A DNA stretch of 64,000 nucleotides from an uncultured Bacteroidota bacterium (GCA_964415295.1 CAYPYN010000005.1:251321-315320), one strand, 5' to 3'; numbered from the stretch's first letter, positions 2,361 through 58,318 are shown. The notes: a model not told the origin generated them from the letters alone. Numbers and translations are program-made.

Positions 2361-2589
2361 AAAGAGTTACGCTTATTCCGCTCAGAAGAAAAGATTCACT
2401 AAAATCAATATATTACAGGAATTTAGCTGAAACAAGTTTTTTCTTAGAATAAAAATCCCTCATTGGCGGTGATGTGAGAGGGAACTGATCTCATGGAATT
2501 CAAAATGCGAATTGCAGAATATGAATTATTTCTGATCGTGAGAATATAGAGGTTTTGTACAGCAGTTTTGAAATGTTCTTCATTCAATC

Positions 2590-2674
2590 AATCCCCCTAA
2601 CCCCCTTTGCAAGGGGGAATAGTTAGTGCAAATTGCAGATTTGTCCCCCTTTAAAAGGGGGATACAGGGGGATT
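2590..2674. repeat. REP/MITE-like composite palindrome (CCCCCT..AGGGGG family)
   Basis: AATCCCCCTAACCCCCTTTGCAAGGGGGA ... TCCCCCTTTAAAAGGGGGATACAGGGGGATT: terminal inverted repeats, each arm also forming its own hairpin. Lies just downstream of the 2123-aa gene. Confidence 0.75.
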
Positions 2675-2705
2675 ATTTTCAAAAAGATCTGAATCCGTTC
2701 TTTTG

Positions 2706-5700
2706 CTACTTCACAAACAGCATCTTCTTTACCTTCGAGATCTTTCCCGCTTCAAGCCTGTAAATGTAAACACCGCTGGCAACTTCTCGGCCTAAGACGT
2801 CTTTCCCATTCCACACCGCCTGATAGTTGCGTCCGGTTTCGTAGTATCCGTTGACCAGCGTCGTTACTTCCTGTCCCAGAATATTGTAGATCTTTATCCT
2901 TACGCTGCTTGACCGCGCCACATCGAACTTGATCGTTGTGGATGGGTTGAACGGGTTCGGATAGTTCTGCGACAGCGAGAATTCTTTCGGCAGAGACGCT
3001 TCGATCTCTTGAACGTGATCGTTCACCCAATTGGCTTCGCCTGCGATAATTTTGAACCGCGCCGGTCGCGCATTATCGAAGGCATATCCGAGGCTCTTTT
3101 CCAATTCCGTTTTCTTGTTATGCGTAATGTCGAAAAGTATGACCTTCTGTATTCCGGCCTCATACTCCCAGGAGAGTCTCGTCTGTTTTTGGCTCGTGTT
3201 GTTTTCAACCACCAGATCCCAGACATGACCTGGTTCACTGGCCGAACGGATATCATACGAAAGATCTCTCACAGCTTCCGAAGAAGTATTGACGAAGTAC
3301 GCATGGACGCCTCCGGCCATGACCAACGGTTCGAGTTCATCCAAGTCATCGTAGTCATTCGCCGCTGCTTCTTTTGTTCCGACATAGTTATAGCTGTCCC
3401 GGTATTCTCCGGATTCCGCCATGAACCGGATGGACGATGTCAGATCATCGGTAATTGATTTACCCGCCGCCCGTGTCCAGGTCACAGCGGAGCCCACGGT
3501 AATATCGCCGGCCGTTTTGTTTCGGATCATGTAGCCGCCATACGGTTTTAGTTGCGAAACCGTTTCCCATCCGCTATTGCCGTTCATCCACCAAATCTGT
3601 CCGATCTTCGCGGCGTCTTTGGCGGTTACATTGGCGGTAAATGTGTAAGGCCATGCGATCAGATTCCACCCGGGCTTGAGAATTGTATTATTGAACGCAT
3701 CCGACGCTATCGCTGTCGGAGATGAAACGCTGCTGAAGAGATCCTCCGGGGTTCCCGTTTTGTGGTAAAGGCCGTACGCATTGCCGCTGGTCATGGAGGA
3801 GACGTCTGAAAAGCTCTGTGTGGACGAATTAAAAGACTGCAGGCGCCAATTGGACGGGTTCCCGTCGCCGGCAAATTCCTGCGCGCCGAAGTAATCGGTC
3901 AGATTCAAAGTGCCGTTGAAGGATAAACCGATAGTAAAATATCCTCCGCTGCCGACGCCGTTGGGGTACGCGCTGATCGTTTTGATCGGAGAGAAATTGG
4001 TGATCTGCACCGCGATCGTCTGTACGCCGGAAGCCGGATAGTAAACAACGCCCGCCGTATTATGCGCGCGTATGCGGAACCAAAGGCCTTCCTGAGTAAC
4101 GCCGGTGCCGGATATCGTAGCCGTGTAAGCGCTTCCGTTGAAAGTCATGAGCGTGGAATCGCCCGGGGACTGACCCGGTTTGCCGTGAAACAGTTTAACC
4201 GTCGGCGCTGAGCCGGTTACCGGAACTGAAATAGTCACGCTTGTTCCCGGAGCCGGATTGGCGTTGGATACCTGAAGGGAACCCGCCGTGATCGAAGGCG
4301 CAATAACTGTGACGGTCAAATTGAATGGCCGGGAATACAGCGTCAGCGCCGTTGCAACCGTGTTAGTGATGCGGCAAATATATTGTCCGTCGTCGGACGC
4401 CTGCGCGGAAGCGATGGAGTAAGAGGAATTTGTTGCCCCGCCGATCAATGTTCCGTCTTTATACCATTGATATTGATTGTTAGCGCCGCCAACCGTGACG
4501 GTGAACGCTAACGCAGCATTCAAATTTACGGTCGTGTCTTTTTGAATGCCTACACTGTCCTGCGGAGAATAGACAAAGGACTGTGATGGCGCGCCGATAT
4601 TGGGTTCGATGTCTTCGAAGGTAAATTGGTTATTATCGATCTCAAGGTTTTCCAGCGAGGTTGCGGTTGAAAAATCCGGCAGATCGGTCAGATCGTTTGA
4701 CGACAAATAGAGTTTTTTCAATTCGCTCAATCCGGTAAGGGAGTTCGGTACCGCTCCCGACAGTTTATTATTAAGCAGATACAGCTCCTGTAAATTAGAC
4801 AAATTTCCAAGCTGAGATGGAATCGTTCCTGTCAATTGATTGGTATGAAGAATCAACTCCAGGATATTGCTCAGGTTGCCGATCTCTGAGGGAATAGAAC
4901 CGCTCAATTGGTTATTGAGCAAATACAGATGCGTCAGATTGGTAAGGTTTCCGATCGAAGAAGGGATCGAGCCCGAAAGGGACGTGTTGTATAAAAAGAG
5001 AATGGTCAGATTCGTGAGATTGCCGATCTGAGGCGGAATTGTGCCTGTGAGCTGGTTACTGTACAGGTGAAGCGCGGTCAAATTGGTCAAATTCCCTATT
5101 TCCGGCGGGATGTTCCCCGATATAAAACACTCGCTGAGATATAGCTGTGTCAGGCCGGTCAGGCTGCAGATCTGTTTCGGGAAAGCCCCGTTGAATTGGT
5201 TCTTGGGCAGATTGAGATAGATCAGGCCGGTCAGGGTTGCGATGCTTTGTGGAATGGTCCCGATGAGATTATTGTCAGGTAAGTTGATCTGCGAGACCCG
5301 GTTATTTGACACGCTTACGCCGAACCATGTCTCCAGCGGATTCCCTGTTTTCCAATTCGTTTTGTTGGTCCAATTTGCTCCGCCCGTGCTGTCGAAGAAT
5401 TCGACCAAAGCCAGCGAGTCGTTCAGCCGCGAAGACAGATACACATTCGCCGCGGCGGGTGAGCTTTCATTTAATCCGTTATCCAGGGCTGTCACGCGAA
5501 AATAGTACATTCCGTCCAGCAACAATGGGCCGAGCAGCGAGGTCGTGTCCGATGCCGTCGTGTTGCTGTCAATCTGGTTGAAGACGATCCCGTCGGTTCC
5601 GGAATAGATGCGATAACGCAAGAAATCCGCATCGGTATTTTGCCGCCATTTCAGCAAAACGCGGTAATTAACGAGCGGTGTAAATGTGAAGTTGGACGGA

Positions 5701-9114: not shown

Positions 9115-10014
9115 TTACTCCGGCGGCAATGTCATGCCGGGAATGCCTTTGGAGCCTTTGCTTCCGCCGCCGCCGCTGAGCAGGATAGCCGAGGCGCCTC
9201 CGAGCACGGCTACACCGCCGACGATGTACCAGAGTTTTTTGTTAGGCCCTTTCGAAACACCCGCAGGTTGGACCGCTTCTGCCGCCATGCGCTTTTTATG
9301 GGCTTCGGAATATTCTATTTTCGCTTCGACCTTCTGATCGCTCCTGAGCAGGATCTCTTTTGAGAATACCGTATGATCCGGAGAACCGCTCCGCGCTTCC
9401 ACCGTATGCCGGCCCTCGGCCAGATTCACCACCGCCTTGTTCTGACCCACGTTTTGCCCGTCGATCAGAATGTCGATCGACTTGACCCCCTTAGGCGCGG
9501 TTGCCGTCACGGTCAGCTCAAACCGTTTTACAGGGGAACGTTTAGAGACCGCATCGGCCAGTTCTTTGGCCATCGCCTGCATGATGCCGAGCAAACCGTC
9601 CCTTTTGCCGGAATAATCGCGCGTCAGCGTCTGAATGATCTTACCGTTTCCCACGTCGATCATGCGGAGATCGATCGTATACGTTTCCCCGAAAACACCC
9701 ACGTCGCCCGCGATCATCGACTCCACGCCGAGCAATTGCCCGACCTGAACCGCGCATTCGGCGGTATTGCACGCGTCGGACATATTAAAATCCTGCGCTT
9801 TGAGTATATCGTTCATCTTCTCGCGCTCCACCACATCAAACGTGTTGGTCTGCACGAGCATATTGCGGAAGCGGCTGGTGAGTATGGAAATTTCGTTCTT
9901 TTCAAATCCTCCCGCGGACTGGAATTCCAGGACGGCCACGGTCGCTTTTTTCTGCTGCGCCAAAAGGGAAGGGACTGTCAGAGCGAGAATGATCAAGAGA
10001 GCGGATCGTCTCAT
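9115..10014 (-). CDS. Secreted/membrane protein with CsgG/HfaB(TolB-N)-like domain, PEGA-like domain and C-terminal TM plus Gly-rich tail
   Basis: Signal peptide; VAVLEF...FDVVERxxMxxILxxQ...AVQVGQLLGV...AG.V...Y.IDLRMIDV pattern; ILIDGQNVG...LAEGRHTVE (PEGA-like); LWYIVGGVAVLGGASAILL TM; GGAGG RBS. Confidence 0.75.
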   Translation of the reverse strand: MRRSALLIILALTVPSLLAQQKKATVAVLEFQSAGGFEKNEISILTSRFRNMLVQTNTFDVVEREKMNDILKAQDFNMSDACNTAECAVQVGQLLGVESMIAGDVGVFGETYTIDLRMIDVGNGKIIQTLTRDYSGKRDGLLGIMQAMAKELADAVSKRSPVKRFELTVTATAPKGVKSIDILIDGQNVGQNKAVVNLAEGRHTVEARSGSPDHTVFSKEILLRSDQKVEAKIEYSEAHKKRMAAEAVQPAGVSKGPNKKLWYIVGGVAVLGGASAILLSGGGGSKGSKGIPGMTLPPE

Positions 10015-10348
10015 ATATCCTCCTGAGAATGTGGAAACGGCAAGCCGAGCTTGTCTATGTGGTTTGGCCGATAAGAAAGAATTGAATTGGCTATCGAATG
10101 AACAAGTAGGGCGGGTCGAATACCTGGCGTAGCCAATGGAATTCTTCCCTAAAGATAATACATAAGGGACTCGTAAAACAACGTTTTTTTCTCTAGGGAA
10201 TGCCGTTTTTTTATCAACGGCTTACCTCCCGTCGTGCATAATATCCCTTGATTCGCCATATGTTTTTTTGTATCATGGGCACGACCAATCCTACATCGGA
10301 TCTGTATAATACAAAATCGGTTGGTCGTGTACTTTTTTGGAGGTTATT

Positions 10349-12181
10349 ATGTGCGGCATTATCGGATATGTCGGTAAAAAACAAGCTCTGCCTATCGTGA
10401 TGAGCGGTCTGAAGCGTATGGAATACCGCGGTTACGACTCCGCCGGCGTGGCGATCATCGAGAACCAAAAGCTCGAGATCATCAAGGAGGCCGGTAAACT
10501 GGGTGAACTCGAGAATCTGCTTGAGGGCGTTCAGTTTGGCGGTACGGTCGGTATGGGCCACACGCGCTGGGCGACGCACGGCGTTCCCAATCAGAATAAC
10601 GCGCACCCGCACACCGGCGAGACCAGCGATTTCGCCGTCATTCACAACGGCATCATCGAGAACTACGCCGCCCTGAAGATCGAACTGGCTTCGAAGGGAC
10701 ATAAATTCCACACCGATACCGATACGGAAACGGTGGTGCATCTCGTGGAGGAATTCTATGAGTCCACGCACGATTTTGAGACGGCCGTTCGTGAAGCTCT
10801 GCTCTGCATCACCGGCGCGTACGGTTTCGTTTTCCTCTGCCGGCACGAACCGCAGAAGATCATAGCCGCGCGCCACGGAAGTCCGCTGGTGCTGGGCTAC
10901 GGTACCGACGAATTCTTTGTGGCGTCCGACGCCTCCGCGATCGTTTCGCATACCCGTCAGGTGACCTATATGGACGACAACGAGATGGCGATCCTCACGC
11001 CCTCCGGCATTGAGATCAAGACCGTGGACAATCAGCCCGTCGTCAAAAAGGTCGAACAGATCACTTACGACATCAGCCAGATCGAAAAGAGCGGCTATGC
11101 CCATTTCATGCTCAAGGAAATTTTCGAACAGCCCAATACGATCCTGGACGCGATGCGCGGACGGACGCTTCCGGATGAAGGCATGCCGAGGCTCGGCGGA
11201 TTGGCGGAACACATGGACACCCTCGCCAAAGCCAAGAAGATCGTCTTTCTGGCATGCGGAACTTCCTGGCACGCCGCACTGGTCGGCGAGTACATGCTGG
11301 AGGAATTCGCCAGGATCAACGTCGAAGTCGAATACGCTTCGGAATTCCGCTACAGGAATCCGATCATAGAAGAGAATACGGTCGTATTCGTCATCAGCCA
11401 GTCGGGAGAGACGGCCGATACGCTGGCGGCCATGCGCGAAGCCAAACGTCGCGGCGCGGCGGTTTTCGGGATCTGTAATGTCGTTGGAAGCACCATTGCG
11501 CGGGAATCCGACGCGGGCGTGTACATTCACGCCGGCCCGGAAATCGGCGTAGCTTCGACCAAGGCCTTTACATCGCAATTGACGGTCATTTCCCTGATCA
11601 CGCTGCTTTTTGCGCGCCTGCGCAATATGTCGGCCGTGGAAGGCAAACATATCATCGAGGAACTGGTCGCGATCCCCGAGAAAGTAAGAACCATTCTCAA
11701 GAATTCCGATTACATCCGCGAGATCGCCGAGACGTATGTCGAAAAACGCAATTTCCTCTACTTAGGACGCGGTTACAATTTTCCCGTGGCTCTCGAGGGC
11801 GCATTAAAGCTGAAAGAAATTTCCTACATTCACGCCGAGGGGTACCCGGCCGCTGAAATGAAACACGGACCGATCGCGCTCATCGACGACGACATGCCGA
11901 CGGTGATCATTGCGCCCAAAGATGCGATCTACGATAAAGTGATAAGTAATCTGGAAGAGGTCAAAGCGCGCGGCGGAAAGATCATTGCGATAACGACCGA
12001 AGGCAATACCGAGATCAAGTCCAAAGCCGATCATGTGATATATGTTCCGAAAACCCATGATTTCCTGAGTCCGATACTGACGGTCATACCGCTGCAGCTT
12101 TTATCGTATCATATGGCGGTATTACGGGGATGTAATGTGGATCAGCCGAGAAATCTGGCAAAAAGCGTGACGGTGGAATAG
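10349..12181 (+). CDS. glmS: Glutamine--fructose-6-phosphate aminotransferase (isomerizing)
   Basis: Starts MCGIIGY (N-terminal catalytic Cys) after GGAGG; RGYDSAG, GHTRWATHG, SQSGETADT, C-terminal NLAKSVTVE. Confidence 0.98.
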   Translation: MCGIIGYVGKKQALPIVMSGLKRMEYRGYDSAGVAIIENQKLEIIKEAGKLGELENLLEGVQFGGTVGMGHTRWATHGVPNQNNAHPHTGETSDFAVIHNGIIENYAALKIELASKGHKFHTDTDTETVVHLVEEFYESTHDFETAVREALLCITGAYGFVFLCRHEPQKIIAARHGSPLVLGYGTDEFFVASDASAIVSHTRQVTYMDDNEMAILTPSGIEIKTVDNQPVVKKVEQITYDISQIEKSGYAHFMLKEIFEQPNTILDAMRGRTLPDEGMPRLGGLAEHMDTLAKAKKIVFLACGTSWHAALVGEYMLEEFARINVEVEYASEFRYRNPIIEENTVVFVISQSGETADTLAAMREAKRRGAAVFGICNVVGSTIARESDAGVYIHAGPEIGVASTKAFTSQLTVISLITLLFARLRNMSAVEGKHIIEELVAIPEKVRTILKNSDYIREIAETYVEKRNFLYLGRGYNFPVALEGALKLKEISYIHAEGYPAAEMKHGPIALIDDDMPTVIIAPKDAIYDKVISNLEEVKARGGKIIAITTEGNTEIKSKADHVIYVPKTHDFLSPILTVIPLQLLSYHMAVLRGCNVDQPRNLAKSVTVE

Positions 12182-54291: not shown

Positions 54292-54900
54292 TCACCCTTT
54301 TACATTAAGCGACCGAGTGAGCGTGGATAGAAGATCGTCCGCTTTGATACCCTCATCTTCCGTGGACAAGCTTCGGTAGCGCCGAAGTAGTGCGATAGCG
54401 TTGGGGTAATCCTCAAGCATGGTTTGAACGAGACCGAGGTTGAAGTACGCATTGGCAAAATTAGGGTCGATTGTAAGAGCCATTTCGTAATGCGTCTTGG
54501 CCAATCTCAGATCGTTCAGATCGAAATAGAGATTTCCAAGATTATATTGCGATTCGAAATGGCGCGGTTCGAGTTCCAGTGATTTGGTGAAGCAGTCAAA
54601 GGCTTTGGCCGTATCGCCTTTTTGTGATTCGATAATTCCGAGATTGCAATACGCATCGGCCGCATTATCACCGGCTTCGATGGCTCTGAGATAAAACCCT
54701 TCCGCTTCCGGTTCTCCCCGCTCGTCCCGCATCAACGCCTCCTCGAAAAGCGACATCTGGGGGGTAAGCGTCAGAATTTTGGCCTTTGGGGATGAAAATA
54801 AATTCATCTGCCCATGGGCCTCAGGGTCGCGTTTGCTCTTTTTTACCCGCTTGAATCCGAATTTGGTAGGGGCTACGGGAAATTTGATAATATTGGCCAT
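54292..54900 (-). CDS. TPR protein with N-terminal low-complexity region carrying two QMxLF (beta-clamp-binding-like) motifs; third gene of the ligD-ku run
   Basis: Start MANIIKFP at 54900; QMNLF and QMSLF; TPRs ADAYCNLGII..., FESQYNLGNLY..., ANAYFNLGLV... Confidence 0.85.
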   Translation of the reverse strand: MANIIKFPVAPTKFGFKRVKKSKRDPEAHGQMNLFSSPKAKILTLTPQMSLFEEALMRDERGEPEAEGFYLRAIEAGDNAADAYCNLGIIESQKGDTAKAFDCFTKSLELEPRHFESQYNLGNLYFDLNDLRLAKTHYEMALTIDPNFANAYFNLGLVQTMLEDYPNAIALLRRYRSLSTEDEGIKADDLLSTLTRSLNVKG

Positions 54901-54925
54901 TATGGAATTGTCTTGCTGAAGCTCA

Positions 54926-55018
54926 AACCACAAAGATCACTAAGCATTTACACAAAGTTCACAAAATTTGAATTCTCTTTGTGGAGCTTAGCTGTTTTTC
55001 TTTGCGTTCTTTGCGGTA
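54926..55018. repeat. REP-like imperfect palindrome (ACCACAAAG..CTTTGCGGT family), copy 3
   Basis: ACCACAAAGATCACTAAG..CACAAAGTTCACAAA ... TTTGTGGAGCTTAG..CTTTGCGTTCTTTGCGGT between ku and the TPR gene. Confidence 0.7.
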
Positions 55019-55027
55019 AAAGGTATT

Positions 55028-55879
55028 CTATGCTGATTTTCTTTTTGCTTTCGGTTTGACCTCTGCCGCTTCCTGCTTTTCGCCCTTGGCTTTTTCCATA
55101 GGCTTTTTCTGCGCTTTGGCCTGTTCAATACTCTGTTTTAGTGCGGTCATGATATCAACAACCGGCTTTTCTTCCTCCGCAACGGTCACAACTTCTTTCC
55201 CGGCGATCTTCGCCTCGATCATCTCGCGCAAGGCTTCGTGGTAATGATCGGTTAGGTCCAGCTCCTTCATTTCCGTACTCATCGATTCCACGAGGTTCAG
55301 CGCAAGCTTGAGCTCGTCTTTATTGATCTTGATCTCTTCGATCTGCGGAACATTATCGATCTTTCTGACTTCGTTGGGGTTGCGAAGCTTGTGCAATAGC
55401 AGGCCTTTTCCATGCGGAGCGATCATGATCACGTCCTCGCGGTCGCGCAGGACAACTTTTCCTATACCAACTTTGCCGCTTTGTTTCAGTGTTTCCGCCA
55501 AAAGGGCGTACGTCTTGGCCGCTACCATGCCGTCCGGACCGGCAAAGTAAGGCGATTCGTAGAGGGTTTCATGAACTTCGCTCGCATCAATGAAACCAGT
55601 GATCTCTATGATACGCGTGCTCTTCAGTTTGATCTTCTCAAGATCCTCGGGCTGCACTATGACATATTGTTCCGGTTCGTATTGATAACCTTTTACGATC
55701 TCGTCGGTGGACAGCGTTTTGTTGCATTTCTTGCAGCGTTTGTCGTATCCGACGGGCCCGTGATCTTCTTTATGGAGTTGGTTAAAACTGATCTTCTGAT
55801 CGGAATCCACCGCGTTATAAATGCGGATCGGGATTGTGACCAGAGAAAAGCGGATATGACCCTTCCATATCGCTCTCAT
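55028..55879 (-). CDS. ku: Non-homologous end joining protein Ku
   Basis: Start MRAIWKGHIRFSLVTIPIR.Y.A after GAGGTG; IVKGYQYE...YV.V..EDLE.I, K.Y.LL..TL..SGKVGIGK.V.R.RE, VVDIM.ALK.S plus a basic tail. Confidence 0.97.
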   Translation of the reverse strand: MRAIWKGHIRFSLVTIPIRIYNAVDSDQKISFNQLHKEDHGPVGYDKRCKKCNKTLSTDEIVKGYQYEPEQYVIVQPEDLEKIKLKSTRIIEITGFIDASEVHETLYESPYFAGPDGMVAAKTYALLAETLKQSGKVGIGKVVLRDREDVIMIAPHGKGLLLHKLRNPNEVRKIDNVPQIEEIKINKDELKLALNLVESMSTEMKELDLTDHYHEALREMIEAKIAGKEVVTVAEEEKPVVDIMTALKQSIEQAKAQKKPMEKAKGEKQEAAEVKPKAKRKSA

Positions 55880-55993
55880 AAAAACACCTCTATGATTTTT
55901 TGTGTACCCAAATGTAAGGCAGAGGCTAAGAAAAGTCCAGTAAAAATAATGACTAAAGTAACACTTTTCACAAACTTTCAACCGGAGAATTTG

Positions 55994-58318
55994 TCACATA
56001 TCTTCGCGCAGTCTCAAAAAAACCGGTTCGCGCAACATGCCATCTTTTGTGAATGAAGCATACTGAACTTCGCAAACCAGTTTAGGTTCGATCCATGTTG
56101 TGACTTTTTCGTCGAGCGGTTTTTCCTGGATAGGTTTTTTGATGGTCGGAACATCGAGAAGTTGGTCATGAATGGATTTAAGCAATTTATCATCAAAACC
56201 GGTTCCTACCTTACCCAAATAGCGTAGTCCGGTTTCAGTCTTCTCTGCAATATGCAAGGCGCCGAAAGTGGTCTTGCGGTCCCCTTTGCCTTGCGTATAA
56301 CCAATGATCAACACGTCCATTGTTTGCCGTGTTTTGATCTTAAGCCAATGGTCAGACCTTTTGCCGGGAAGATACGAACTGTTTTTTCTTTTGGCCATGA
56401 TACCTTCGAGCCCGAGTTGTTTAGCCGCTTCAAAAAGTTCTTTTCCTTCATCGACCATTTCACTTACACGGTACGAGGAGTCTTTTTTGATCACGTCGTT
56501 CAGCCAGGAACGCCGACGCTCCAGAGGTTCGTGTATGACCGGCCGTCCATCGAGATATAGGAGATCAAACACATAACAGACGGCCGGAAATTTGGCCTTT
56601 GCCCGGGCAATAGAGTTTTCTCCTTTTTGCTGCATGCGATGGATCACATGCTTGAATATCGGTTTTCCCGCTTCATCGAGACAGACGATCTCCCCGTCAA
56701 AGAGCGCCCCGCTGACACGAAAAGACTCCGGGATGGTTAGTTCTGGAAACTGCGACGTAATATCCATTCGATTTCGGCTGTGAATTTTCACGGCGCCTTC
56801 ATCCACCGATATCAACGCGCGTATGCCGTCCCATTTGACCTCAAAACCATAGTCTCCGGATCCTGGAACGTCACTTCCGAGTTCAGCAAGCATGGGTTCG
56901 ATAGGATCCTGAAGCCAATCTATTTGCGGAGTATCTACGCGTTCCAGCAGCCACTGATTATCTTTCATGAGATGAGTACGATACTCGGCATTGATCTCAC
57001 GGCTGTGCAGGCGGAAATAGAACCCGTTTTTCTTTTCTTTCGTGATTTGGTACTTACCGGTCGCGTACACCCACATCTGCCCACCGCCATACTCGCCCTT
57101 GGGGATGGCACCTTCGAAATTCAGGTATTCAAGCGGGTGGTCTTCAGTCGCAACCGCTAGACGTTTGACCCCCGGCCTCGGCGGCATCCCTTTGGGAACG
57201 GCCCATGACTTGAGTACACCGTCTTTTTCGAGCCGCAGATCATAATGCAGTCGCGAGGCGTGATGCCTATGAATGACAAAAGCGGATCCTTCACCTGAAA
57301 TCAGTTCGGGCTTTGGTTCCGGTGTTTTGTCAAAACTTCTTTTTTTAGAATAGGTTTCCAATTGTTCCGGCGTTTTCCGTTTCCCGGAAGCTTTCAGCTC
57401 CTTTTTGACCACCGCTTTTTCTTTACGATGTGAGTGCAATTCCACCGCATACGCGGCCATGGTTTCCCAGGGATCGCCGCCGGATAAGACTTTTTTTGGA
57501 ACGGAGTGCACATTCCATTCAACCGGGTTTTGCGTTTGCTCCAATTCCTCCCAGGTCAGCGGCGTCGAGACCGGCGCTCCGGGAAGTCCGCGAACGCTGT
57601 AGGCGGCAACGGTCGTCTGGCCTGGCCGGATGCGGAAAATGTCGATCAGAACGCGCCCTTTGCGGTATTCTTTTTGAATGTGAAGCGTTGTTCGGGACGA
57701 GTTTTTTTCCACAAAGGGTTGAACCAGCGCCTTCGCCGCTTCGAAAACGTCTTCAAAAGTGTGATTAGCTTCAATGGGCATGACCAGATGCAGGCCCTTC
57801 CGGCCTGTTGTCTTTACGAACGGAAAATACCCAAATGATTCGATGTGTGGTTTGAGGTCAAATGCCAGTTCCACGACATTCGGAAACGGGTAACCGTCCG
57901 GCGGATCGAGATCGAGAACCATATAATCCGGTTTGTCATAATGCGGACCCCGTGCGTGCATCTGGTGAAGTTCGATGCAGGCCAGATTAGCCAGCCAAAC
58001 CAGCGACGCTTCTTCGGTCGCGATCACATATTCTTTCTTTTCTTCACCGCTTCCTAGTTTCACCGACTCCAGCCAGTCCGGCGCCCAATCCGGCTTGTTT
58101 TTCTGAAAGAACATTTCCCCGTTTATCCCATCCGGGTAGCGAACAAGGGACAATGGGCGGCCTTTGAGATGGGAGAGAATGGTCGGAGCGAGTTTCAGAT
58201 AATACTCTACCAGCTCCGCTTTGACGATATGGTCATCGGGATACAGAACTTTGTCGAGGTTGGAAAGTTCAAACGTGCGTTTGCCAACCTGAACTCTGTG
58301 CGCTTTGCGGGAGGGCAT
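55994..58318 (-). CDS. ligD: DNA ligase D in polymerase - 3'-phosphoesterase - ATP-dependent ligase order
   Basis: POL: SNLDKVLYP...K.ELVEYY, R.P.G..G..FFQK, DLDP, KTTG.KGLH. PE: Y.KKR.F.KTPEP, FVI.RH.ASRLHYDLRLE..GVLKSWAVPKG, EDHP..Y..FEG.IP.GEYGGG. LIG: EVKWDG.R, EGIMAKR..S.Y.PG.RS..WLKIK. Confidence 0.96.
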   Translation of the reverse strand: MPSRKAHRVQVGKRTFELSNLDKVLYPDDHIVKAELVEYYLKLAPTILSHLKGRPLSLVRYPDGINGEMFFQKNKPDWAPDWLESVKLGSGEEKKEYVIATEEASLVWLANLACIELHQMHARGPHYDKPDYMVLDLDPPDGYPFPNVVELAFDLKPHIESFGYFPFVKTTGRKGLHLVMPIEANHTFEDVFEAAKALVQPFVEKNSSRTTLHIQKEYRKGRVLIDIFRIRPGQTTVAAYSVRGLPGAPVSTPLTWEELEQTQNPVEWNVHSVPKKVLSGGDPWETMAAYAVELHSHRKEKAVVKKELKASGKRKTPEQLETYSKKRSFDKTPEPKPELISGEGSAFVIHRHHASRLHYDLRLEKDGVLKSWAVPKGMPPRPGVKRLAVATEDHPLEYLNFEGAIPKGEYGGGQMWVYATGKYQITKEKKNGFYFRLHSREINAEYRTHLMKDNQWLLERVDTPQIDWLQDPIEPMLAELGSDVPGSGDYGFEVKWDGIRALISVDEGAVKIHSRNRMDITSQFPELTIPESFRVSGALFDGEIVCLDEAGKPIFKHVIHRMQQKGENSIARAKAKFPAVCYVFDLLYLDGRPVIHEPLERRRSWLNDVIKKDSSYRVSEMVDEGKELFEAAKQLGLEGIMAKRKNSSYLPGKRSDHWLKIKTRQTMDVLIIGYTQGKGDRKTTFGALHIAEKTETGLRYLGKVGTGFDDKLLKSIHDQLLDVPTIKKPIQEKPLDEKVTTWIEPKLVCEVQYASFTKDGMLREPVFLRLREDM

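Follow-up and report, generated by a model that had tools for sequence, protein, structure and literature searches.

In bacteria, NHEJ (non-homologous end joining) is taught and modelled as a minimal machine composed of Ku and LigD, and the locus described here raises the question of whether a third gene may belong to it. The locus lies at positions 54,292-58,318, on the minus strand, of a 64,000-nucleotide stretch of DNA from an uncultured Bacteroidota bacterium (this whole stretch is called the window below), and comprises ligD, ku and a gene encoding a small tetratricopeptide repeat (TPR) protein. An original prediction, made from the sequence of the window, had proposed that the TPR protein could be a third, adaptor-type component, which tethers the end-joining proteins to the sliding clamp (the beta clamp, DnaN) through two short peptide motifs. 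Our analysis indicates that the TPR gene is the close to obligate neighbour of ku within one Ku clade, that its product is very probably a dedicated NHEJ accessory factor, and that one of the two motifs is nearly invariant in the family, whereas the other is not conserved.

Results

Linkage of the TPR gene to ku

In the window, the genes follow one another head to tail in the order ligD, ku, TPR gene (Table 1); they are consecutive, as had been read originally and as the open reading frame (ORF) coordinates confirm. Linkage was then counted from both sides. Among the best 80 loci of at least 511 confirmed relatives of the TPR protein, 76 have upstream sequence, and 75 of these have ku directly upstream in the same orientation, with a median gap of 49 nucleotides and a gap of 12 nucleotides or less in a quarter of them. 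Seen from the other side, a scan of the Ku alignment against JGI metagenome contigs gave 80 loci with a Ku 69-78% identical to that of the window, and the TPR gene stands directly downstream of ku, on the same strand, in 71 of the 72 with at least 250 nucleotides beyond ku. The adjacency to ku that the original prediction had made a point to check is thus found in both directions. The tight partner is ku rather than ligD; of the loci sampled from the TPR side, only about half have ligD within 10 kb, upstream and in the same orientation, where it either adjoins ku or is 1.5-6 kb off. When the neighbouring ORFs were clustered, only Ku, LigD and the TPR protein recurred, and nothing else was present in more than 14 of the 80 loci. 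The pattern extends to four divergent members of the family, recovered with a profile of the N-terminal tail: three have the ligD-ku-TPR arrangement, and in the fourth, on a 1.8-kb contig, the Ku C-terminus ends where the TPR gene starts.

The family was found in at least 511 species genomes from many phyla when one genome per GTDB species was scanned (at least 599 pattern matches, at least 511 confirmed relatives). Taxonomic labels of the best 80 loci include, within Bacteroidota, Chitinophagales, Cyclobacteriaceae and Cytophagales, and further Ignavibacteriota/Chlorobi, Verrucomicrobiota, KSB1, Latescibacterota, Nitrospirota/Thermodesulfovibrionales, Calditrichaceae, Deferribacteres and 'delta proteobacterium'. 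Ku and LigD are 60-80% identical between phyla, which suggests that the ligD-ku-TPR module moves horizontally. In a plasmid collection, 718 replicons from cultured bacteria carry a Ku, at no more than 40% identity, and no member of the TPR family was found there; the ten best plasmid TPR matches listed are 26-32% identical, and the one from Calothrix, which covers 93% of the query at 26% identity, lies in a metal-transport context. Pairing of ku with the TPR gene is therefore confined to one Ku clade, in which it is nearly obligate.

Two individual records concern the pairing itself. The exception among the 76 loci (L054, TPR gene at 10001-10609, QLNLF intact) is the only one with 10 kb of upstream sequence and yet neither ku nor ligD; ku was apparently lost from it, because in the syntenic loci L056, L058 and L064 ku is flanked by the TPR gene on one side and the same HAD-hydrolase gene on the other. 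A metagenome protein of 138 amino acids (P0130) joins the Ku C-terminal arm (...KKPMEKAKG...) to the N-terminus of the TPR protein across a short stretch that is out of frame; it is the product of either an assembly frameshift or a read-through that fuses the genes.

The TPR protein and its family

Homologues of the TPR gene begin at the ATG of MANIIKF rather than at the TTG (54933). When 5.8 billion protein sequences were searched with the TPR protein, 1663 matches were returned, the best 120 of which are all 196-227 amino acids long, align over their full length with alignable N-termini, and are 55-93% identical; they are named only 'tetratricopeptide repeat protein' or similar, and their labels include KSB1, Bacteroidota and Verrucomicrobia. 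Between phyla, proteins of the family are 55-60% identical over their full length. Pfam recognizes the repeats (TPR_1, E = 2e-24; TPR_2, E = 1.5e-19), and all Pfam and NCBIfam matches are to generic repeat models. None of the named NCBIfam TPR families (MamA, PilW, BatC, NlpI, PrsT and others) was reached, as the best scores of 37-44 bits, against cutoffs of 154-312, represent matches at the level of the repeat. Taken together, these comparisons point to a discrete, unnamed family of about 200 amino acids. We found no literature on this Ku-associated TPR family.

The superhelix-forming tandem 34-residue helix-turn-helix repeats that characterize a TPR protein are seen both in the Pfam matches and in an AlphaFold2 model, which was built with an alignment of 43 sequences and shows nine helices. 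Foldseek returned generic TPR folds only (consensus TPR, the TPR of OGT, MamA) at E of about 1e-7, with TM-scores of 0.5-0.66 when normalized to the 202-residue query and up to 0.9 when normalized to the target. No homology to XLF, PAXX or APLF was detected in Pfam, in NCBIfam or among the 50 best Foldseek matches in the PDB, all of which are TPR proteins. Within the TPR domain, D59, E60, C85, R113, H114, E116 and H137 are invariant in the family and go beyond the generic TPR consensus. Charge is segregated along the protein; across the family, the mean net charge is +6.6 in the N-terminal tail and -9.7 in the TPR domain.

One conserved pentapeptide in the tail

Both pentapeptides of the original prediction are present at the positions it had given, as reading of the sequence confirmed: QMNLF is encoded by cag atg aat tta ttt (54810-54796, residues 31-35), and QMSLF by cag atg tcg ctt ttc (54759-54745, residues 48-52). 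The stretch around them had been described as basic and disordered-looking, and this description is supported by the tail charge given above and by the model, in which the predicted local distance difference test score (pLDDT) is below 50 at residues 1-13, 23-34 and 36-46, and about 62 around residues 11-20. No secondary structure is predicted at residues 31-35.

Conservation in the tail was assessed by column statistics over 195 distinct family members, and the first pentapeptide proved to be its sharpest feature (Q31 99%, [LM]32 96%, L34 99%, F35 98%). The four fixed positions carry 3.5-4.3 bits of information and the middle residue 2.2 bits; the flanks (positions 23-30 and 36-39), at 1.1-2.7 bits, are among the most variable parts of the protein. 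A strict Q[LM]xLF occurs at one aligned position in 182 of the 195 members, versus 2 of the 993 unrelated proteins encoded nearby (293,565 residues), and most of the remaining 13 members have near variants such as QINLF, QISLF, QFNLF or QLNIF. In the set sampled through ku, QLxLF was found in all 67 tails long enough to judge, with 12 different middle residues; QLDLF, QLHLF, QLPLF, QLNLF and QLSLF are the commonest forms. The motif is also kept in most of the divergent representatives that were read among the matches to the tail profile. Near-invariant between variable flanks and free at its middle residue, Q-[LM]-x-L-F shows the pattern of a short linear motif maintained by selection.

The second pentapeptide fared differently. 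Q48 is conserved in 12% and L51 in 10% of the members; F52, at 100%, belongs to the TPR fold, whose first helix (residues 51-60) it opens along with E53, A55 and L56. Two copies of Q[LM]xLF are present in only 10 of the 195 members, mainly in the subclade of the window itself. QMSLF was rejected as a clamp motif on these grounds, and the idea that two copies might engage both pockets of the clamp falls with it.

The bacterial clamp-binding consensus was reportedly formulated as QL[S/D]LF by Dalrymple and colleagues in 2001. Motifs of this class are present in Pol II, Pol IV, Hda, MutS, DnaE and other clamp binders, and that of E. coli UmuC is QLNLF. As a pattern, Q-[LM]-x-L-F matches this consensus, and further properties of the class are found in the family as well, namely a flexible segment near a terminus and conservation among orthologues over a variable background. 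We lean slightly towards the view that the first motif binds the clamp. No Q[LM]xLF of their own is present in Ku (0 of 68) or LigD (0 of 48) of the family loci.

Other islands of the tail and the basic arm of Ku

Three other conserved islands flank the pentapeptide in the tail (Table 1). Island 2, a basic patch, is highly conserved (K13 97%, G15 94%, R18 91%, V19 87%, K21 88%) and is the sole block of the tail with pLDDT above 60; in island 4, the values are A40 73%, Q41 64%, I42 72%, L43 79% and [LF]45 93%. One member has an acidic insert of 70 amino acids between islands 1 and 2, and the islands therefore behave as separate modules. When a profile of the tail alone was run against 1.84 billion representative proteins, all 77 matches had the architecture of about 200 amino acids or were fragments of it, and the tail was never attached to another domain among them.

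Islands 1 and 4 constitute an internal repeat, many members reading AQILKFP at one site and AQILxFxP (for example AQILDFAP) at the other. Two similar sites of this kind might correspond to the two-fold symmetry found in a Ku dimer or in a clamp dimer.

The partner Ku has a conserved feature of its own. The motif xPMx[KR]AxG, usually KKPMEKAKG, is present in all 69 full-length Ku proteins linked to the TPR gene; it sits just past the conserved VVDIMTALKQSIEQAK helix, in an arm whose last 32 residues have a net charge of +9.4. The TIGR02772 match ends before the motif (at residue 251); the motif is unmatched in M. tuberculosis Ku, and is not reached by the alignments of plasmid-borne Ku proteins, which stop at residues 253-260. 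We regard KKPMEKAKG as a candidate for the place where Ku contacts the acidic TPR domain, and binding of this domain to the basic Ku arm as an attractive idea, in line with the charges of the two partners.

The ku-TPR spacer

The gap between ligD and ku is 114 nucleotides and that between ku and the TPR gene 127 nucleotides. Since gaps are short across the family, co-transcription of ku and the TPR gene would be the simplest reading. The RNA of the window's spacer folds at -30.6 kcal/mol (z = -1.7 versus shuffled sequences, not significant). Its sequence is not kept in the closest relatives, whose proteins are 88-94% identical, and a hairpin occurs only in some of them; the palindrome was on this account rejected as a conserved regulatory element.

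In the closest relative (L001, 8405-8500), a strong hairpin is followed by a U-run (-34 kcal/mol, z = -4.3) and ends about 15 nucleotides before the start codon. The window's hairpin occupies the same place, is weaker and has another stem sequence. The spacer of L003 contains a weaker hairpin, that of L002 none, and in L004 the gap is just 11 nucleotides. Where present, the hairpin may act as an internal attenuator which sets the ratio of Ku to TPR protein by lowering the latter.

Ku and LigD of the window

The ligD product contains, in this order, LigD_Prim-Pol (PF21686, E = 5e-82), LigD_N (phosphoesterase; PF13298, 5e-33), DNA_ligase_A_M (PF01068, 9e-39) and DNA_ligase_A_C (ligase OB; PF04679, 1.5e-24), and scores 498 bits against TIGR02776 (cutoff 373, E = 3.5e-149). 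The ku product scores 279 bits against TIGR02772, Ku_bact (cutoff 150, E = 3.4e-83), matches PF02735 at 5e-45, and resembles the solved Ku structures of B. subtilis (7e-46) and M. tuberculosis (3e-36). A mechanical ORF list puts the start of ku at a TTG at 55981, 34 codons upstream (317 amino acids, extra stretch 55880-55981); we place it at the ATG at 55879, because homologues and the Ku model favour the ATG over the TTG. A bacterial-type Ku is thus combined with a LigD having ligase, polymerase and phosphoesterase domains, which characterizes the genes as a Ku-LigD NHEJ locus with predicted end-joining activity. A convergent ORF for a membrane protein follows the TPR gene, and therefore the module ends there. 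No PADLOC defence-system model was matched by the TPR protein, Ku or LigD, PHROGs gave generic TPR and 'Ku-like' matches only, and Rfam gave no match within the window.

Table 1. Coordinates of the features of the locus, as counted in the window
Feature	Position	Strand	Description
ligD	55994-58318	(-)	DNA ligase D, 774 amino acids; polymerase/primase, 3'-phosphoesterase, ATP-dependent ligase order (Pol-PE-Lig)
ku	55028-55879	(-)	bacterial Ku, 283 amino acids from ATG (MRAIWKG)
KKPMEKAKG motif	55082-55108	(-)	Ku residues 258-266, basic C-terminal arm; conserved within clade
ku-TPR spacer	54901-55027	(-)	127 nucleotides; 9-nucleotide perfect inverted repeat, arms 54928-54936 and 54976-54984; CACAAAG/CTTTGTG repeats
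TPR gene	54292-54900	(-)	202 amino acids from ATG (MANIIKF); basic, predicted disordered tail and acidic four-repeat TPR domain
N-terminal tail	54760-54900	(-)	residues 1-47; predicted disordered, net basic, four conserved islands
Island 1	54877-54891	(-)	residues 4-8 (IIKFP); consensus [IV]-[LI]-x-F-P; I4 77%, L5 72%, F7 88%, P8 68%
Island 2	54838-54864	(-)	residues 13-21 (KFGFKRVKK); basic patch, consensus K-F-G-[FY]-[KE]-R-V-[KR]-K
Island 3	54796-54810	(-)	residues 31-35 (QMNLF); Q-[LM]-x-L-F, candidate beta-clamp-binding motif
Island 4	54766-54783	(-)	residues 40-45 (AKILTL); consensus A-Q-[IV]-L-x-[LF]
QMSLF	54745-54759	(-)	residues 48-52; second pentapeptide, not a conserved motif
TPR domain	54298-54750	(-)	residues 51-201; nine helices, acidic, pLDDT >90

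Neighbouring genes in related loci

Several other genes were noticed in the loci of the family. An alpha/beta hydrolase of the Abhydrolase_11 family (PF20408), absent from the window, stands beside ligD in 13 of the 80 loci (L007 5611-6297, L010 347-1030, L033 5863-6582, L071 510-1202, L073 1628-2329 and eight more), was noted in L084 and L085 as well, and may be another recurrent NHEJ neighbour. Two loci labelled Ignavibacteriales (L052 5201-6433, L073 8773-9999) have an inserted gene that separates ku from the TPR gene, in the same orientation, and encodes a PF01663 type I phosphodiesterase/nucleotide pyrophosphatase of about 409 amino acids. In a Verrucomicrobia metagenome-assembled genome (MAG), a ResIII/DEAD helicase-like gene of 840 amino acids lies between ligD and ku, directly upstream of ku (L010 6079-8601). 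In an Ignavibacteria MAG (L050 353-2883), the LigD functions upstream of ku-TPR are matched in three separate pieces (phosphoesterase, ligase and polymerase, at only 33-54% identity), which suggests a split or different arrangement. Finally, a family of about 240 amino acids beginning MKLWVGTSGYSYKEW..., which may be DUF72-like, occurs in 9 of the 80 loci, mostly upstream of the ligD-ku-TPR module (cluster 6: L005, L007, L012, L025, L034, L041, L067, L074 and L079).

Discussion

How, then, might a TPR protein tied to ku take part in end joining? In the most likely mechanism, the hydrophobic pocket of the beta clamp would receive the QLxLF peptide of the tail, while the remainder of the protein (TPR domain and/or the other islands of the tail) would hold Ku, possibly via its basic C-terminal arm, or would hold LigD. 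Ku-bound DNA ends would thereby be coupled to clamps on the same DNA, which could, for example, favour fill-in and ligation or bring end joining into step with replication. Taken as a single statement, namely that the TPR protein is an NHEJ accessory factor acting as an adaptor with QLxLF in the clamp and the rest on Ku or LigD, we find the proposal evenly poised between acceptance and rejection. The wider formulation, according to which NHEJ in this Ku clade is a three-component system where a motif-bearing adaptor couples Ku, and LigD through Ku, to the beta clamp, is put forward tentatively and with some doubt. In either form it retains from the original prediction the ku-linked third gene and a conserved, clamp-type first motif, and gives up the second motif together with the two-pocket arrangement.

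Several observations weigh against a clamp-bound adaptor. The motif is lost in four members (L060, L074, P0183 and P0185), and a hydrophobic motif of five residues could bind some other partner, such as Ku, LigD or the groove of the protein's own TPR domain. A probe for dnaN detected none in the window or in the family loci. An AlphaFold2 chimera of Ku residues 225-283 and the full TPR protein, computed with the TPR family alignment and lacking the Ku core, the Ku dimer and DNA, showed no confident docking of either the arm or the tail (pLDDT 48-73 in blocks of the Ku arm, 53-58 in blocks of the tail); with those parts absent, the model carries little weight in either direction. In the window, the gaps on both sides of ku, and the hairpin between ku and the TPR gene, bear on whether the genes are transcribed together. 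Moreover, all family members are known from uncultured genomes.

Other readings of the same data have to be considered. TPR proteins are very common, only generic repeat models match this one, with no named family above its curated cutoff, and the second pentapeptide is indeed a lineage-specific coincidence; one could thus imagine an ordinary TPR gene placed beside ku by chance, with QxxLF sequences that are chance matches. We consider this highly improbable, since two independent samplings, across many phyla and in otherwise unrelated neighbourhoods, gave linkage counts by which chance adjacency is effectively refuted, and it would leave unexplained a family that keeps its full-length similarity between phyla and a nearly invariant first motif. 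A more serious alternative is an accessory factor that binds Ku or LigD and makes no contact with the clamp. QLxLF and the flanking islands would then dock on Ku or LigD, much as the short Ku-binding motifs of eukaryotic XLF, PAXX and APLF do, and the TPR domain would bring in another client, for instance a nuclease, a hydrolase or a protease. The linkage is above all to ku, the tail has four islands and not one, and its internal repeat (AQILKFP, AQILxFxP) might suit the Ku homodimer with its two-fold symmetry; the basic patch followed by L-F resembles the C-terminal Ku-binding motif of XLF, a likeness we treat as a lead only, and extra enzymes recur nearby, namely the Abhydrolase_11 hydrolase and, between ku and the TPR gene of two loci, the phosphodiesterase. 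On the other hand, bacterial Ku is not known to have the vWA domain that receives the eukaryotic Ku-binding motifs, agreement with the clamp consensus in every one of its fixed residues (Q, L, L and F) would have to be a coincidence, and the tail did not dock in the chimera, which contained the arm of Ku but not its core. On balance, an accessory factor of this kind, working away from the clamp, seems unlikely to us.

It is also conceivable that the TPR protein regulates or antagonizes Ku, its acidic TPR domain masking the basic, DNA-binding C-terminal arms of Ku or helping to release Ku rings trapped on repaired DNA. A clamp contact would then restrict its activity to replicating DNA, and the protein would limit end joining during growth or recycle Ku. 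The charges of the TPR domain (-9.7) and of the Ku arm (+9.4) are complementary, the arm motif is conserved only in the linked clade, and a terminator-like hairpin, as found in some relatives, would give less TPR protein than Ku. A study of B. subtilis Ku assigns to its C-terminal arm the control of threading, bridging and LigD recruitment (PMC4889933). The chimera model, however, left the Ku arm undocked on the TPR domain, and such a role overlaps with that of an adaptor rather than excluding it; as a separate explanation, we judge it rather improbable.

The papers that we found describe bacterial NHEJ as Ku and LigD only, and neither a TPR protein nor a link to the clamp was found in them. 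Like the systems of M. tuberculosis, B. subtilis and P. aeruginosa, the window has a canonical Ku and a three-domain LigD side by side; unlike them, its Ku clade has a third gene fixed directly downstream of ku. With the QL[S/D]LF clamp binders, the TPR family shares the same pentapeptide, a flexible region near a terminus and drifting flanks, whereas the carrier of the candidate motif is here a non-enzymatic protein tied to ku, with three further islands. The TPR protein also recalls XLF, PAXX, APLF and CYREN/MRI, being small, equipped with a disordered tail and short motifs (including a basic patch and then L-F) and encoded beside Ku and a ligase; since no sequence homology to them was detected, this is a functional analogy only. 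A further analogy is the coupling of PCNA to DNA ligase I through a PIP box in eukaryotes and archaea, in which a Q-initiated hydrophobic peptide, a clamp and an ATP-dependent ligase of the same superfamily meet. There, however, the motif belongs to the ligase, and here it would be on a separate adaptor, and the clamp would be the bacterial beta.

A pairing of ku with a TPR gene was also seen in the genetically tractable model organism Sinorhizobium meliloti, on pSymB (L090; CP140955.1 244521-250285), where ku (2492-3376) is followed by a TPR gene (3376-4461), an Abhydrolase_11 gene (4463-5104) and xth (from 5112). The TPR-containing protein of 361 amino acids (WQP25146.1) is encoded beside ku, with an overlap of 1 nucleotide with the ku end, and is 77-100% identical in 87 replicons of Sinorhizobium, Ensifer and Pararhizobium; the S. 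meliloti NHEJ study that we checked does not mention it. In contrast to the window protein, with which it shares a generic TPR similarity (27% over 84 amino acids), it has an N-terminal region of 200 amino acids with neither the basic tail nor QLxLF, and is not of the same family. The S. meliloti ku-TPR pair is an independent parallel.

What would a third gene mean for bacterial end joining? One that is essentially obligate in a large Ku clade, which spans at least 511 species genomes from phyla of soil and sediment, would make the minimal picture of Ku and LigD lineage-specific. The family also offers annotators a specific name in place of 'tetratricopeptide repeat protein'. If QLxLF binds DnaN, end joining would be connected to the clamps left on DNA, and this would bear on how NHEJ and replication are separated or coordinated, and on the handling of the ring-shaped Ku. 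Should the adaptor reading be true, the TPR protein would be the first to link prokaryotic end joining to the replisome clamp. It would likewise be the first accessory factor of bacterial NHEJ to act through a short motif, functionally analogous to factors of the XLF, PAXX and APLF type and to the coupling between PCNA and ligase.

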